This document shows positions 2,013 through 5,805 of a DNA stretch of 5,955 nt, in pieces. The translations under genes were made by a program, and so were the position numbers. Position 1 is the first letter of the stretch. Each line of letters starts with the position of its first letter. The notes below the pieces were generated by a model. That model saw only the letters and a program-made list of their open reading frames with translations, had not been told where the DNA came from and searched no databases. Source of the DNA: a virus (taxonomy: Duplodnaviria; Heunggongvirae; Uroviricota; Caudoviricetes); the IMG/VR virus record IMGVR_UViG_2663763000_000004; one strand, given 5' to 3'.

Positions 2013-2759
2013 TCACTTCGCAATTCCTGGCTGGACGACATTCGGACGCCAGCTCTCCCAGTTAAAATTCACCCATCGCCCGCCGTTCATGGTCATGCGA
2101 TCCATAATCCGCTCGCCGAGCAATGTTTTCATGGCCTCATAGTTCAGGTTTGTCAGCATCCCCACGCTGCGCATCGACGCTGTCCGGCGATCAACAATCT
2201 GGTGCAGCACCACCTGCTCGTTTTTCGTCTCGCGCTGAATGCCAATTTCATCAAGAACCAGCAGATCTACTTCGCACAGCTCCCGCAAAAATTTTTCGCC
2301 TGACTGCCCGTCGTCATAGCTGGCGTGCAGGGCGCTCATAACATCAGCCACGGTAACCACAATCACTGTCTGACCGTCTTTCAGCAGGCGATTCCCGATA
2401 GCTGCCGCTAAGTGATTCTTCCCGGTACCAGGTTTTCCGCTGAACGCAAAATTTGTACACCCGGTCATCAGTTCATCGGCGATGGATTTCGCCTGGCTTA
2501 ACGCGTATCGCTGGCCGTCGTTCTGCACCTGGTAATTCGCAAACGAGCATTTACGGTGCAACGGCTGGATGCCTGAACGATTCAGAATTTTTTCCACCCG
2601 CAACTGGCGATTCAGGCGGTTGATCTCCTCGCTACGTTTCTGGCCTTCAGCAAGTTGCCACTCGCGCCACTCCGCTACCGTTCTGAATGGGGCGGTTACA
2701 TGTGGCGGGGTCAGTCGGCGGATGCGTTCCAGAACGCCGCCTGTCGCAATATTTTTCAT
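2013..2759 (-). CDS. DnaC-like replicative helicase loader (AAA+ ATPase)
   Basis: 248 aa with ATG start. Walker [18 protein letters not shown] and Walker [10 protein letters not shown]; the N-terminal MKN...[18 protein letters not shown] and C-terminal [23 protein letters not shown]...[10 protein letters not shown] stretches are near-colinear with E. coli DnaC as I remember it. Sits immediately downstream of the O-like gene, as in the Rac ydaU-ydaV arrangement. Confidence 0.9.
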
Positions 2760-2765
2760 GGTCCG

Positions 2766-3554
2766 TTACCCCCTGAAGCCTGGCGGGATCGCACTGTCCG
2801 GCAACGAGACAGTGTTAACCTGTCGGAGCAACGTCTCAGGCCGAACACCTTTCGGCGCGAACAGGCCCTGGTATTCATTGGCGATGCTGTGTCGAATCAC
2901 CTGCTCAGGTGTAAAACCCTGCTGACGGAATTTTTCCAGCTCCCGTATCGCCCCGTTAGCGCCCTGCTCCGTTCGAATCGGTTTTCGCAATGCCTGCCTG
3001 AACTTAACCCACTCATGCCAGAGTGTTTCCGGCAACCAGTCAGGCAGCTCGATAGCCTCCGGCTCGAATTTTTTAGACGCTCGTTTTTGGCGAGGGGGAT
3101 TTAGGGGGAGATCAGTATTTATATCTTCCTCTTCCTCTTCCTCTGGTAACGCTTTTTGATCCGTTTGTGTAACGCTGCCAGCGTTACCTTTTCGTTTCAG
3201 TTCGCGTATTTTTGTAACTCGCTCGTTTGTAACCGCCCGTTTTTTAGAGCTTTTTCCGTTATGACGTTCAAAGTTAGGTAGAGAAAGCCCACCGTCATTT
3301 TCGACCAGCCATCCAACCTGAATTAACGCATCAGCAAAACCAGCCATAAAAGTGATGCGGTCTATTGCACTTTTTGTAACGCCGCGAGCGTTACAATCTG
3401 CATTACCGTCTATCATTTGTTGATCCGCCCATGCCCAGAAGCGAATAACCTTCCCTAATGCGGCATCTGGATCAATATTCAGAATCTCAGCAAGCCTGAA
3501 TATTTCCGGCTTATCCGGCGTAATAACCTCGAGCTTTATCCAGTTTGAAGCCAT
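2766..3554 (-). CDS. phage replication initiator / replisome organiser (lambda O analogue, YdaU position)
   Basis: 262 aa; ATG at 3552-3554 with AAGGTG 7 nt upstream. Lies directly upstream of, and nearly abutting, the DnaC-like gene. The middle of the gene carries an iteron-like repeat cluster and an acidic EEEEEED linker, as lambda O carries ori. Family is assigned from position and architecture, not from recognised sequence identity. Confidence 0.7.
   Translation of the reverse strand: MASNWIKLEVITPDKPEIFRLAEILNIDPDAALGKVIRFWAWADQQMIDGNADCNARGVTKSAIDRITFMAGFADALIQVGWLVENDGGLSLPNFERHNGKSSKKRAVTNERVTKIRELKRKGNAGSVTQTDQKALPEEEEEEDINTDLPLNPPRQKRASKKFEPEAIELPDWLPETLWHEWVKFRQALRKPIRTEQGANGAIRELEKFRQQGFTPEQVIRHSIANEYQGLFAPKGVRPETLLRQVNTVSLPDSAIPPGFRG
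3145..3237. repeat. iteron-like repeat cluster inside the O-like gene (candidate replication origin)
   Basis: GTAACGC half-sites at 3146-3152 and 3169-3175, inverted GCGTTAC at 3181-3187, and variants GTAACtCGC (3214-3222) and GTAACcGCC (3229-3237); includes the 19-bp palindrome GTAACGCTG-c-CAGCGTTAC (3169-3187). Followed toward the gene 3' end by a pyrimidine-rich (CTTCCT)3 tract and an AT-rich patch (3110-3145). Confidence 0.5.
3374..3396. repeat. second copy of the GTAACGC-N5-GCGTTAC palindrome (TTGTAACGC-cgcga-GCGTTACAA)
   Basis: 9-bp perfect inverted arms inside the 5' part of the O-like gene; same core as 3169-3187 and 3566-3588. Confidence 0.5.
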
Positions 3555-3565
3555 TTGTTTTCACC

Positions 3566-3588
3566 TTGTAACGCTCGCAGCGTTACAT
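3566..3588. repeat. third copy of the GTAACGC-N5-GCGTTAC palindrome, just upstream of the O-like RBS
   Basis: TTGTAACGCt-cgc-aGCGTTACA in the 77-bp spacer between the YdaT-like stop and the O-like start, 14-30 nt upstream of the O-like ATG. No flanking T-run or A-run, so it is not a terminator. Confidence 0.5.
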
Positions 3589-3631
3589 TTAACTGATACC
3601 GAACAAAACAATCCGGCACGATCAATTTCAA

Positions 3632-4054
3632 TCAATGCACTACGACAGAATCGCCGGGCGACCCACCACCGCTGAAATGTGCTTTCCGGTAAACGGCCTG
3701 GACTGCATCATCATGCGCATCAATTGCCGTACTCAACGCTTCCTGCGCCGCCAGTAATGCACGGCGTTCCAGGGTATCGAAGATGCAGAGTCGGTGACGC
3801 AGCTCGCGCGGAAGAATTGCCAGAACCGCAGGGATCAGTTTCTGAATTTTTTCCCTTTGCGCTTTCGTTTCACCTTTCAACCAACGGTGATAGATATTCT
3901 GCTGATTGTTCCAGTCCTTGCCTGGTACAAGGGGCAATTCGCCGCCCCCCTGGCGCAGATATTCTTCAGTAATTGCGTTAGCGACCCACGCCTGCCCTTT
4001 TTCGGCTGCCAGGGCTAACAACACTGATTCGATGTGCTCATGCCTGATTTTCAT
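3632..4054 (-). CDS. ydaT: YdaT-family protein (CII-like regulator / putative toxin of the Rac ydaS-ydaT module)
   Basis: 140 aa; ATG at 4052-4054 overlaps the Cro-like stop as ATGA. The sequence MKIRHEHIESVLLALAAEKGQAWVANAITEEYLRQGGGELPL... matches my recollection of E. coli K-12 Rac YdaT (also 140 aa) very closely. It occupies the cII position between cro and the replication genes. Confidence 0.7.
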   Translation of the reverse strand: MKIRHEHIESVLLALAAEKGQAWVANAITEEYLRQGGGELPLVPGKDWNNQQNIYHRWLKGETKAQREKIQKLIPAVLAILPRELRHRLCIFDTLERRALLAAQEALSTAIDAHDDAVQAVYRKAHFSGGGSPGDSVVVH

Positions 4055-4293
4055 GAATCAACCGCTCCTATGCTGTTTTCGCTATGCTTACCGTCTGGGG
4101 GGAATACATCGTCAAGTCCACAATGAGCGCCAAGCCGATTAAGGGTAGAAACAATTTTTCTGCACTCCTCTAGTCCAGGGGTACGAAAATTTGCTTCGTA
4201 ATTTGCCAGTCGGCTTTGTATCCACCCTAACTGAACAGCAAGTTGTCTTTGAGACAGCCCAAGCTGTTTTCGATATGTTGAAATTTTGTTCAT
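4051..4293 (-). CDS. Cro-like HTH-XRE transcriptional regulator (80 aa)
   Basis: ATG at 4291-4293 with GGAGG (reverse complement of 4301-4305) 6 nt upstream. N-terminal HTH QLGLSQRQLAVQLGWIQSRLANYE of the Cro/C1 (XRE) type. First gene of the minus-strand operon, divergent from the repressor. Confidence 0.8.
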   Translation of the reverse strand: MNKISTYRKQLGLSQRQLAVQLGWIQSRLANYEANFRTPGLEECRKIVSTLNRLGAHCGLDDVFPPDGKHSENSIGAVDS

Positions 4294-4389: not shown

Positions 4390-4809
4390 ATGGAAAAAGA
4401 AAACGAAAAAATTGCCGCTAGTAGGCTCAATGACAAAATTGCAATGCGTCTTAAAGAGCGCAGGCAGAAGCTTGGTTTATCTCAAGGAAAACTTGCTGAA
4501 ATCTGCGGATGGACGCAATCGCGTATAGGTAACTATGAGGCGGGCAGCAGAAATGTTGGAGTGCATGACGCTGTCGTATTGGGAAAGGCACTTGGCATAT
4601 CTCCTCCTGAGCTCCTATTTGGAGAACAGGAATCTTCTGAATTGTGGTTAAATGAATCCCAACGAAAACTTCTTGAGTTGTTTAACCAGCTACCTGGCTC
4701 AGAACAACAACGAATGATTGAGCTATTTGAAGTCCGGCTAAAAGAAATCGATGAGTATGTAGAAAAATATTTGAGAGGCAGGCTTAAAGATAATCCCCCA
4801 CCGGAGTAA
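4390..4809 (+). CDS. DicA-like prophage repressor (N-terminal HTH-XRE, C-terminal dimerisation region, no S24 peptidase domain)
   Basis: 139 aa; ATG at 4390 with AAGGA 4-5 nt upstream. HTH KLGLSQGKLAEICGWTQSRIGNYE; the C-terminal SQRKLLELFNQLPGSEQQRMIELFEVRLK resembles the DicA C-terminus (SPKELELLELFNALPESEQ...) as I recall it. Divergent from the Cro-like gene. Confidence 0.8.
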   Translation: MEKENEKIAASRLNDKIAMRLKERRQKLGLSQGKLAEICGWTQSRIGNYEAGSRNVGVHDAVVLGKALGISPPELLFGEQESSELWLNESQRKLLELFNQLPGSEQQRMIELFEVRLKEIDEYVEKYLRGRLKDNPPPE

Positions 4810-4838
4810 TGATCTTGCTATCACAGTAATATGCCAAT

Positions 4839-4864
4839 CAGCCCGCTATCAGCGGGCTTTTTTG
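4839..4864 (+). terminator. rho-independent terminator downstream of the repressor gene
   Basis: Perfect 8-bp GC-rich stem AGCCCGCT (4840-4847) / AGCGGGCT (4851-4858) with a 3-nt loop ATC, followed by a T-run (4858-4863), 30 nt after the repressor stop. Confidence 0.8.
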
Positions 4865-4892
4865 TACCATCATCATATGACACCCACCACAA

Positions 4893-5103: not shown

Positions 5104-5805
5104 ATGAGGTCAACANNNNNNNNNNNNNNNNNNNNNNNNNNNNNNNNNNNNNNNNNNNNNNNNNNNNNNNNNNNNNNNNNNNNNNNNNNNNNNNNCCAGG
5201 AGATTGCAGCACACACACTTCGTCATCGTCTGAACGAACTTGAATTGGAATCGGTAACGAAAAAAGACACTGATAATATGGCTCGTAATGTGCGCGATGC
5301 GTTTACCGGATTGTATTTCTGTGCGTCTATAAATAAACACGACTCAGAGAGTGTGGCAAATAAAATTGCAGAAACGACAGCGCAAAACATCAATACGAAA
5401 CCAACGGAAGAAGAAATTGATCAGTTTGCTCATGATGCTGGTTTAAAAAACAAGAAAGAAAAATCGCCATATGCGGGGAACATGTTTGTTTATGACAATC
5501 TCATCAGAATTCGTGGCGAAATTCCGGCGGAATACCTGGCAAGAGTCCATCAGGCATTGCTTAAAAATTTGGAAACAGAATTATTTGATGGCAACACTAA
5601 CGGTTTCTTCATGGTATCAGGCCTTGAGAAAGACTGGGATGCAGAAAAACGCTGGAATGTTGCTACATGGTTATTCAGTAACAGAGCCGCTGCACTGGAA
5701 GCTTCGGCATGTATTTGCGGCCTGTTCTTAACAGACCACAAATATAATCTGGATGTGTACAGTTATATTTACGCTGAACACGGTCCACTCTGGATTGACT
5801 GGTAA
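5104..5805 (+). CDS. hypothetical protein of unknown function; lower-GC accessory gene in the cI-proximal position, interrupted by an assembly gap
   Basis: ATG at 5104 with strong SD AAGGGG (5095-5100); 80 N at 5116-5195; then a continuous open frame 5196-5805 ending in TAA (5803-5805). Hand-counted GC in three 60-nt blocks (5281-5460) is roughly 35-43 percent, against roughly 50 percent in a replication-gene block (2401-2460). The gap length, and so the frame link between 5104 and 5196, cannot be trusted; an in-frame ATG at 5278 has no SD. No motif I recognise. Confidence 0.5.
   Translation: MRSTXXXXXXXXXXXXXXXXXXXXXXXXXXXQEIAAHTLRHRLNELELESVTKKDTDNMARNVRDAFTGLYFCASINKHDSESVANKIAETTAQNINTKPTEEEIDQFAHDAGLKNKKEKSPYAGNMFVYDNLIRIRGEIPAEYLARVHQALLKNLETELFDGNTNGFFMVSGLEKDWDAEKRWNVATWLFSNRAAALEASACICGLFLTDHKYNLDVYSYIYAEHGPLWIDW
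5116..5195. other. assembly gap (80 N)
   Basis: Run of exactly 80 ambiguous bases, a conventional scaffold-gap placeholder. Confidence 0.99.

Follow-up and report, generated by a model that had tools for sequence, protein, structure and literature searches.

Iteron plasmids of the F, R6K, pPS10 and pSC101 type carry direct repeats at the origin and, upstream of the initiator gene, an inverted repeat of the same half-site. The Rac prophage of Escherichia coli K-12 has a genetically defined origin, oriJ. DnaT, which has no sequence-specific origin-binding N-domain, acts in replication restart. In phage lambda, the middle of gene O contains the origin, whose iterons are 19-bp imperfect inverted repeats accompanied by an AT-rich tract (PMC7466680). 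In Stx phages, two additional iterons add 13 residues to the O protein, and variants with six iterons have been described (PMC7466680). Our literature search found no sequence-level description of oriJ, YdaU/YdaV, the DNA motif analyzed here or the epsilon15/phiV10 origins, and no paper on the origin of the initiator family encoded at the present locus. That locus lies in a viral DNA stretch of 5,955 nucleotides (IMG/VR record IMGVR_UViG_2663763000_000004), hereafter the window.

Genomic context of the replication module

The window derives from a Rac-type lambdoid E. coli prophage, with the early-right operon on the minus strand. Its best match is strain PEC399 (99.6% identical over 1.7 kb), and related DNA is present in 1629 of 5426 complete E. 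coli genomes, with 627 of the 5426 covering at least 80% of the query. The module is also found in deposited complete phage genomes. A plasmid search returned 2 records only and thus provides no broad plasmid evidence of autonomous replication. The genes in and around the operon are as follows.

4390-4809, plus strand, cI-like repressor
4051-4293, minus strand, cro-like HTH protein
3632-4054, minus strand, YdaT/cII-like protein
2766-3554, minus strand, initiator gene ("O-like"), 262 aa, PHROG 2509
2013-2759, minus strand, YdaV, DnaC-like helicase loader (Pfam IstB_IS21, 1.3e-19; NCBIfam PRK12377, 1.7e-153)
after ydaV, minus strand, DUF1627, DUF977 and DUF551 genes

YdaV, the presumed partner of the initiator C-domain, also matches the DnaC equivalog model (2.4e-91), at a level below that model's cut-off. 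A promoter scan of positions 3000-4283 revealed no sigma-70-like site except the cro-side promoter, and transcription of the initiator gene appears to come by read-through from the early-right operon.

The initiator combines an N-domain lacking a Pfam match with a YdaU/DnaT-like C-domain

The initiator matches PHROG 2509, annotated as a replication initiation protein, from end to end (E=1.5e-89), with residues 1-262 aligned to positions 1-277 of the 277-position profile. The preliminary description of this DNA called the gene O-like; the protein is, however, not a member of the lambda O family, as it has no match to any Pfam family at E≤0.01, and its match to the "O-like" PHROG 678 is confined to residues 77-236. 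Its layout comprises a putative winged-helix-like N-domain (approximately residues 10-100), a basic helix (residues 104-119), a disordered linker (residues 121-166) and a YdaU/DnaT-like C-domain (residues 170-262). In the AlphaFold2 model, the N-domain (pLDDT 80-91) is ordered as helix, helix, loop, helix, helix and β-hairpin, while residues 121-166 are disordered. The N-domain may thus be winged-helix-like in this model, a weak fold assignment. Searches with the N-domain found nothing in Pfam or NCBIfam.

The C-terminal 124 residues of the initiator (residues 139-262) are 81% identical to K-12 YdaU by BLASTP, with no alignment before residue 139. A PDB sequence search matched the DnaT-like C-domain only, where residues 170-262 show weak matches to the DnaT C-terminal domain (PDB 2ru8, E=1e-4; 9zbt, E=4e-4), and the NCBIfam DnaT model scores the initiator at 16 bits against a cut-off of 201. 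The DnaT-like family PF17948 was seen in homologs with other C-domains and not in the window protein. The N-terminal ~135 residues are unrelated to YdaU and recur fused to other C-domains, often PF17948, in Uetakevirus phages and many Enterobacterales prophages. PGAP names the window-type gene "hypothetical protein" and the K-12 gene "YdaU family". Among relatives, the sequence of the basic helix (TNxRV versus AERKR or RRKK) shows an apparent link to the class of DNA motif described below, which we regard as a lead only.

Three dyads, half-sites and a polypurine tract in and upstream of the initiator gene

The window contains three exact matches to GTAACGC-N5-GCGTTAC (3169-3187, 3376-3394 and 3568-3586), with start-to-start spacings of 207 and 192 bp. 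Dinucleotide-preserving shuffles (n=200) yielded a mean of 0.01 dyads and none of the 200 gave three, while the GTAACGC 7-mer itself is present in 8 copies in the window versus 0.6 expected, 7 of the 8 being inside 3146-3586. The exact matches and the shuffles therefore bear out the preliminary description of three palindromes with a common 7-bp arm, although the outer coordinates that it gave were slightly generous; the true symmetric extents are 3169-3187 (9-1-9), 3374-3396 (9-5-9) and 3567-3587 (9-3-9). The sites and associated elements are as follows.

3568-3586, upstream dyad, GTAACGC-TCGCA-GCGTTAC, symmetric extent 3567-3587
3400-3406, minus strand, degenerate direct half-site, GTAATGC on the gene strand (GCATTAC on the plus strand), 12 bp upstream of site A
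3376-3394, site A dyad, GTAACGC-CGCGA-GCGTTAC, symmetric extent 3374-3396, in the N-domain coding region
3214-3220, minus strand, one-mismatch half-site, GAGTTAC on the gene strand (GTAACTC on the plus strand), 27 bp upstream of site B
3169-3187, site B dyad, GTAACGCTG-C-CAGCGTTAC, in the interdomain linker, codons 123-129
3146-3152, minus strand, exact half-site, GCGTTAC on the gene strand, codons A-L-P
3113-3144, minus strand, polypurine tract AGAGGAAGAGGAAGAGGAAGA (3124-3144) and AT patch TATAAATACTG

The 77 bp that separate ydaT from the initiator gene contain the upstream dyad, at -32 to -14 relative to the start codon of the initiator. This dyad adjoins the Shine-Dalgarno sequence AAGGTGA (3561-3567, minus strand), stopping 1 nt before it. 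Site A corresponds to codons 54-60, which encode C-N-A-R-G-V-T in a low-confidence surface loop of the AlphaFold2 model (pLDDT <50 at residues 54-57). This loop accepts insertions of 4 to 15 residues. The degenerate half-site at 3400-3406 was overlooked by the preliminary description; together with the left arm of site A it looks like a 12-bp duplication (GNAD/CNAR), and a 4-residue insertion relative to Uetakevirus-type homologs is seen there. Site B encodes G-N-A-G-S-V-T in the window. Together with its half-sites, it spans codons 112-137, at the junction between the N- and C-domains, and the YdaU homology starts at residue 139. We propose site B as the candidate core initiator-binding site of an origin. 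A terminator-like match on the plus strand at 3169-3187 was rejected as a separate feature, as it is made up of site B and the T-rich stretch after it, in antisense orientation to the gene.

The cluster of additional half-sites that had been noted around the first palindrome was upheld in part. The exact half-site at 3146-3152, which is positioned 23 bp downstream of site B and directly adjoins the purine tract, is kept in nearly all representatives of the comparison set described below, and the one-mismatch half-site at 3214-3220 recurs in several lineages, its place being occupied by GAGTTAC, GCGTTAC or GCGTTGC in 9 of the 27 representatives shown (L003, L075, L151, L133, L214, L217, L128, L009 and L159). 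The proposed member at 3229-3235 (GTAACCG) is weak, with 2 mismatches, and is not conserved. The pyrimidine tract and AT-rich patch reported beside the first palindrome are both present. The tract, polypurine on the gene strand and pyrimidine on the plus strand, is 21 nt long (3124-3144), and the short AT patch covers about 12 bp (~3113-3125), with a minimum GC fraction of 0.375 in 40-bp windows. Both fall in codons for LPEEEEEEDINTD, and we propose that they form a putative DNA-unwinding or strand-specific loading element.

The dyads are conserved as DNA across related loci

For comparison, about 370 related loci were fetched, mainly from viral contigs, with at least 4 loci matched in genome contigs, and codon usage was analyzed in 33 representatives sharing <95% nucleotide identity. 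Both intragenic dyads are present in every fetched N-domain variant with at least 60% protein identity, as well as in several at 44-50%. A 41-kb circular element of Pusillimonas (46% identity) retains an exact dyad at site A, while its linker is a half-site array without an exact dyad. The arms are near-invariant, whereas the 5-nt spacers vary freely, including by non-synonymous changes; at the upstream dyad, the arms are invariant and the spacer is variable (89 unique sequences).

The codon data show the same constraint. Synonymous positions elsewhere in the gene are near saturation, with a background majority-codon fraction of 0.55 ± 0.16 over 57 conserved-residue codons. By contrast, the fraction is 0.91-1.00 for the codons of the site A arms (Mann-Whitney p=2e-4) and 0.67-1.00 for the K-x-L-P-E-E-E codons, which contain the last half-site and the purine tract (p=3e-5). 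Here, within the half-site at 3146-3152, the six-fold degenerate Leu codon is TTA and the Pro codon is CCA in 32/32 representatives (100% fixed). Site B is moreover read in different frames, frame 1 (GNAGSVT) in Rac-like lineages and frame 0 (NVTRTAL) in Uetakevirus-like lineages, where it is ~10 bp nearer to the purine tract. The comparison thus indicates that the dyads are conserved as DNA, not as protein code, across hundreds of related phages.

The linkers of relatives share an order of elements, in which 1-3 direct GTAACGC half-sites with a 12-bp period are followed by the dyad, 1-2 inverted half-sites and the purine tract. The extra half-sites force "xNAx" repeats on the protein, for example SNAKGNAISNAASVT. 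The window linker is a reduced version of this array, with one full dyad, one exact half-site and one near half-site. The upstream dyad is found in 13 of the 33 core lineages, those with non-coding DNA upstream, often with 12-bp-phased half-sites; it is missing in about 60%, including every lineage in which the preceding gene touches or runs into the start codon of the initiator.

In nearly all subfamilies, a run of 16-44 purines comes after the dyads. This tract is translated as EEEEEE in the window and as EKRREEK or REEKRREE in other relatives, and two lineages (L144 and L376) read the same AGAGGA repeat in another frame as RGRGRG. Because relatives translate the same purine tract differently, the "acidic linker" of the preliminary description probably reflects a DNA element and not selection for a peptide. 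A conserved 43-bp block that includes the tract (3116-3158) shows 93% identity even between genes whose nucleotide sequences otherwise do not align. The purine block sits exactly at a mosaic junction, where similarity between initiators with different C-domains stops, and recombination may therefore account for part of its conservation.

More distant subfamilies carry other dyads at the same linker position, again with a purine run after them. The variant forms are as follows.

GTCACGC, lineage L298, changed at sites A, B and a third site
TGTCACG-N7-CGTGACA, linker position, distant subfamily
TGTCCCG-N7-CGGGACA, linker position, distant subfamily
TGTCAGAAT-N3-ATTCTGACA, linker position, distant subfamily
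GTCCGCAT-N3-ATGCGGAC, linker position, distant subfamily

Across these subfamilies, the aligned loci indicate that the dyad sequence changes together with the N-domain. The dyads are retained whether the C-domain is DnaT-like (PF17948) or of another type, and next to different flanking regulators, and the dyad-bearing Uetakevirus phages infect Escherichia, Klebsiella and Enterobacter. Two further arguments were considered. Helical phasing from the conserved spacing between sites A and B (207-264 bp) was dropped, as this spacing is fixed by the length of the encoded folded domain. The co-occurrence of dyads and N-domain was downgraded as proof of cognate binding, since the sites lie within that domain's own DNA.

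Comparison with lambda, Rac, iteron plasmids and DnaT

The arrangement resembles that of lambda in several respects. The candidate origin is inside the initiator gene, at the junction between a DNA-binding N-domain and a loader-recruiting C-domain, as these domains are predicted to function here; the sites have ~19-bp internal dyad symmetry and are followed by a tract that is predicted here to unwind easily; and the helicase loader gene is directly next. As in lambda and the Stx phages, extra sites lengthen the protein, the "xNAx" repeats of relatives being the counterpart here. Unlike in lambda, the initiator N-domain lies outside the lambda O family and the site motif is unrelated. Lambda has four tandem dyads, whereas relatives of the window have half-sites with a 12-bp period that converge on a single dyad, and the window linker itself has far fewer sites than the four lambda iterons. 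The window also has two additional full dyads, one ~200 bp upstream within the sequence that codes for the N-domain and the other ~400 bp upstream in the leader. Where lambda has a long AT-rich block, a polypurine tract flanks the sites here, and the loader is DnaC-like rather than lambda P. The preliminary description had noted that the wide spacing of the palindromes is unlike lambda, which is half the picture: the other two dyads are indeed dispersed, but in the linkers of relatives the half-sites are tightly arrayed, one every 12 bp.

K-12 Rac shares the operon layout (cro-like gene, ydaT, initiator, ydaV), the C-domain (81% identical) and the ydaT and ydaV DNA (about 93% identical). Its initiator gene also has a repeat cluster at the corresponding place in the linker, and further copies are scattered over the part that encodes the N-domain. 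The YdaU N-domain is, however, unrelated, and the repeats are TGTTTGAACA / TTGAACATC instead; there are no GTAACGC dyads and no EEEEEE purine tract, and the upstream gap is only 12 bp.

Iteron plasmids are similar in combining direct repeats with an upstream inverted repeat, which is the logic behind the autoregulation suggested in the preliminary description. They differ in that the window lacks a Rep_3-type initiator, its protein having a single winged-helix-like domain in the model and no Pfam match. In addition, no promoter overlaps the upstream dyad of the window, the candidate origin is inside the gene and the element is a phage. The E. coli dnaT-dnaC pair offers a further parallel, as the C-domain weakly matches the DnaT C-terminal domain and the next gene matches the DnaC model.

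Alternative explanations for the dyads

The dyads could be transcriptional operators only, through which the initiator or another regulator represses the replication genes, with the true origin elsewhere. One dyad directly precedes the ribosome-binding site, 13 of the 33 core lineages have an upstream copy, and iteron-plasmid Rep proteins employ inverted repeats as operators. Yet there is no sigma-70-like promoter near any dyad, the upstream copy is missing where the upstream gene abuts or overlaps the start codon, the best-conserved sites are intragenic, beside the frame-independent purine tract at the domain junction, and the phased half-site arrays resemble origin iterons. A purely operator role is thus improbable. 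The narrower suggestion that the upstream copy mediates autoregulation gains no support, because no promoter-like site is nearby and the copy is present in only 13 of the 33 core lineages; such control is nevertheless possible, perhaps with the copy acting as a roadblock to read-through transcription. We consider it about equally improbable that the dyads bind a different protein, either from the host or from the phage, with a role such as packaging, recombination or partition, or that the junction DNA is mainly a substrate for module-shuffling recombination. The forced overlap between dyads and N-domain means that co-occurrence does not identify the binder, and the end of similarity at the purine tract, together with the 43-bp block that is 93% identical between otherwise diverged genes, is what a recombination substrate would be expected to display. 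Against a different binder, the sites persist although the flanking genes of the Rac-type, Uetakevirus and Pusillimonas elements differ completely, and a change of N-domain subfamily brings a change of dyad sequence; recombination alone leaves unexplained why synonymous sites are fixed in arms that are 200 bp away from the junction.

As palindromes, the sites could also act as RNA hairpins in the early-right transcript, in stability, processing or translational control of the initiator. Each dyad folds with a 9-10-bp stem, the minimum free energies of the surrounding 51-106-nt segments range from -16 to -23 kcal/mol (z = -2.7 to -3.0), and the upstream hairpin stops 1 nt before the Shine-Dalgarno sequence. 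A favourable fold is, however, built into any palindrome; the arms are invariant in sequence, with no compensatory pair changes within a subfamily, the direct half-sites at a 12-bp period are unable to pair and there is no Rfam match, which makes a role as RNA very improbable. Finally, sites A and B of the window share a reading frame and the peptide pattern x-N-A-x-x-V-T, which could suggest that the palindromes are a by-product of the coding sequence. This explanation, like chance, does not survive the change of frame and the synonymous-site data: the Uetakevirus-type site B is in another frame and encodes another peptide, synonymous positions are fixed, the upstream copy is non-coding, and no shuffle reached three copies.

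A proposed origin within the initiator gene

We favor the reading, with a probability of roughly 70%, that the dyads are cognate sites of the initiator encoded around them and that replication of the phage starts from an origin whose core is the linker cluster. The selected dyads, the phased arrays, the adjacent element expected to unwind easily, the position at the domain junction and the covariation with the N-domain match the lambda arrangement, and we therefore read 3113-3220 as the origin core. An origin with iterons at this location had been suggested in the preliminary description, and the comparison of relatives strongly supports that suggestion through selection at the DNA level, the domain-junction position and the covariation with the N-domain. 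Because co-occurrence of dyads and N-domain is forced by physical overlap for two of the three dyads, we infer the identity of the binder by analogy. Judged from sequence, the locus most likely contains a lambda-like origin within the initiator gene of a different, uncharacterised initiator family. What would be new is its own motif, the half-site array converging on a dyad, the dispersed accessory dyads and the frame-independent purine tract.

In the mechanism that we propose, the N-terminal winged-helix-like domain would bind GTAACGC half-sites, with the initiator forming a head-to-head dimer on the 19-21-bp dyad and further protomers occupying flanking half-sites phased 12 bp apart. The complex at 3146-3220 would destabilise the adjacent polypurine/AT element (3113-3144), and the DnaT/YdaU-like C-domain would recruit the DnaC-like loader YdaV with host DnaB. 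Site A and the upstream dyad, 207 bp and 399 bp upstream, may serve as accessory initiator sites, acting through looping or through control of expression.

A more speculative extension, which we consider doubtful, is that the three dyads form a looped or handcuffed complex or, alternatively, that the polypurine tract is a strand-specific loading platform. The former, if true, would couple initiator expression (through the upstream dyad), occupancy of a site within its own coding sequence and origin firing; such copy-control logic is known from iteron plasmids and, to our knowledge, has not been described for lambdoid phages. The latter, if the platform is read by the DnaT-like, ssDNA-binding C-domain, would represent a new kind of unwinding or helicase-loading element.

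About 12% of complete E. coli genomes carry the module, which also occurs in Uetakevirus phages from several genera of Enterobacterales and in numerous viral contigs from metagenomes. The N-domain of its initiator has no Pfam family and no published origin that we could find. The analysis provides a testable prediction for this domain, consisting of the motif TGTAACGC-N5-GCGTTACA, a 12-bp phasing of half-sites and an adjacent purine-tract element, and the natural specificity variants (GTCACGC, TGTCCCG, TGTCAGAAT and others) are suited to swap experiments. The locus also clearly illustrates how DNA signals can take precedence over protein coding, as the sites dictate "NA...VT" peptides and a run of Glu or Arg-Gly. 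For annotators and protein modellers, it urges caution before an "acidic linker" is read as a protein feature.

Dyad spacers and the ydaT-initiator gap

Each GTAACGC dyad encloses a 5-bp spacer, and these spacers vary among related loci. The spacer of the upstream dyad (3568-3586), located in the gap between ydaT and the initiator gene, differs among near-identical prophages, reading either TGTGA or its reverse complement TCACA (window compared with related loci L003, L077 and L090). Because this change takes either three substitutions or a single inversion, it suggests inversion of a hairpin or cruciform loop. At site B, the dyad in the interdomain linker of the initiator gene (3169-3187), the centre base is G in some loci and C in others across many loci, which changes Gly to Ala. 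The same ydaT-initiator region contains two further elements:

3620-3640, minus strand: direct repeat TTGATTGAAATTGATC (TTGAT-N5-TTGAT, 10-bp period) spanning the ydaT stop codon
3590-3620, minus strand: second hairpin, in the gap, with arms GUGCCGGAU and GUUCGGUAU

The direct repeat is kept in close relatives, as revealed by locus comparison, and is reminiscent of the lambda CII sites (TTGC-N6-TTGC). It is located directly 3' of the cII-like ydaT gene. In phage vB_EcoS-666R9, the counterpart of the 3590-3620 hairpin is a perfect ACCGAAC/GTTCGGT stem; the hairpin in the window's gap has no U-run.

Basic helix and KKR codons of the initiator

Comparison of initiator sequences across dyad classes drew attention to one protein segment:

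~3198-3245: basic helix after the wing, initiator residues 104-119

Most GTAACGC-class proteins carry TNxRV here; AERKR, RRKK or SEAQRRKR takes its place where the dyad is of another class. The helix is a candidate specificity determinant. The Lys-Lys-Arg codons (S-K-K-R, ~3240-3250) contain the run AAAAAACG, in which synonymous sites are fixed: 97-100% of representatives have AAA AAA there, in contrast to the variable Lys codons elsewhere. This run, which lies ~60 bp upstream of site B, may be one more element at the DNA level.

State of the prophage

The DUF977 gene (998-1219) spans only 68 of 134 profile positions and its counterpart in PEC399, the E. coli strain with the closest match, is annotated as frameshifted; the prophage is therefore at least partly decayed. 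Two other features of the window are:

4838-4866, plus strand: AGCCCGCTATCAGCGGGCTTTTTTG, putative intrinsic terminator, read off the sequence
5116-5195: 80-N run (assembly gap or masked stretch) breaking the 5' part of ORF 5104-5805

The first, right after the cI-like gene, looks like a plus-strand intrinsic terminator. A Pfam search with the N-interrupted ORF 5104-5805 gave no match.

Parallels with host dnaT-dnaC and K-12 Rac

In sequence, the initiator C-domain (residues 170-262, 2769-3045) weakly resembles that of DnaT at its C-terminus (2ru8, 9zbt); a DnaC-like gene follows (2013-2759). Thus, the ydaU-ydaV pair parallels the host dnaT-dnaC pair. In K-12 Rac, ydaU also harbors repeats:

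L001 (K-12 Rac) 2966-3037, 3185 and 3270: ydaU repeat set, TGTTTGAACA / TTGAACATC

These form a linker cluster plus scattered copies in the N-domain coding DNA, a layout that mirrors that of the window's initiator gene with a repeat set of its own. The K-12 ydaU repeats are a candidate for the sequence-level anatomy of oriJ, the genetically defined origin of the K-12 Rac prophage.
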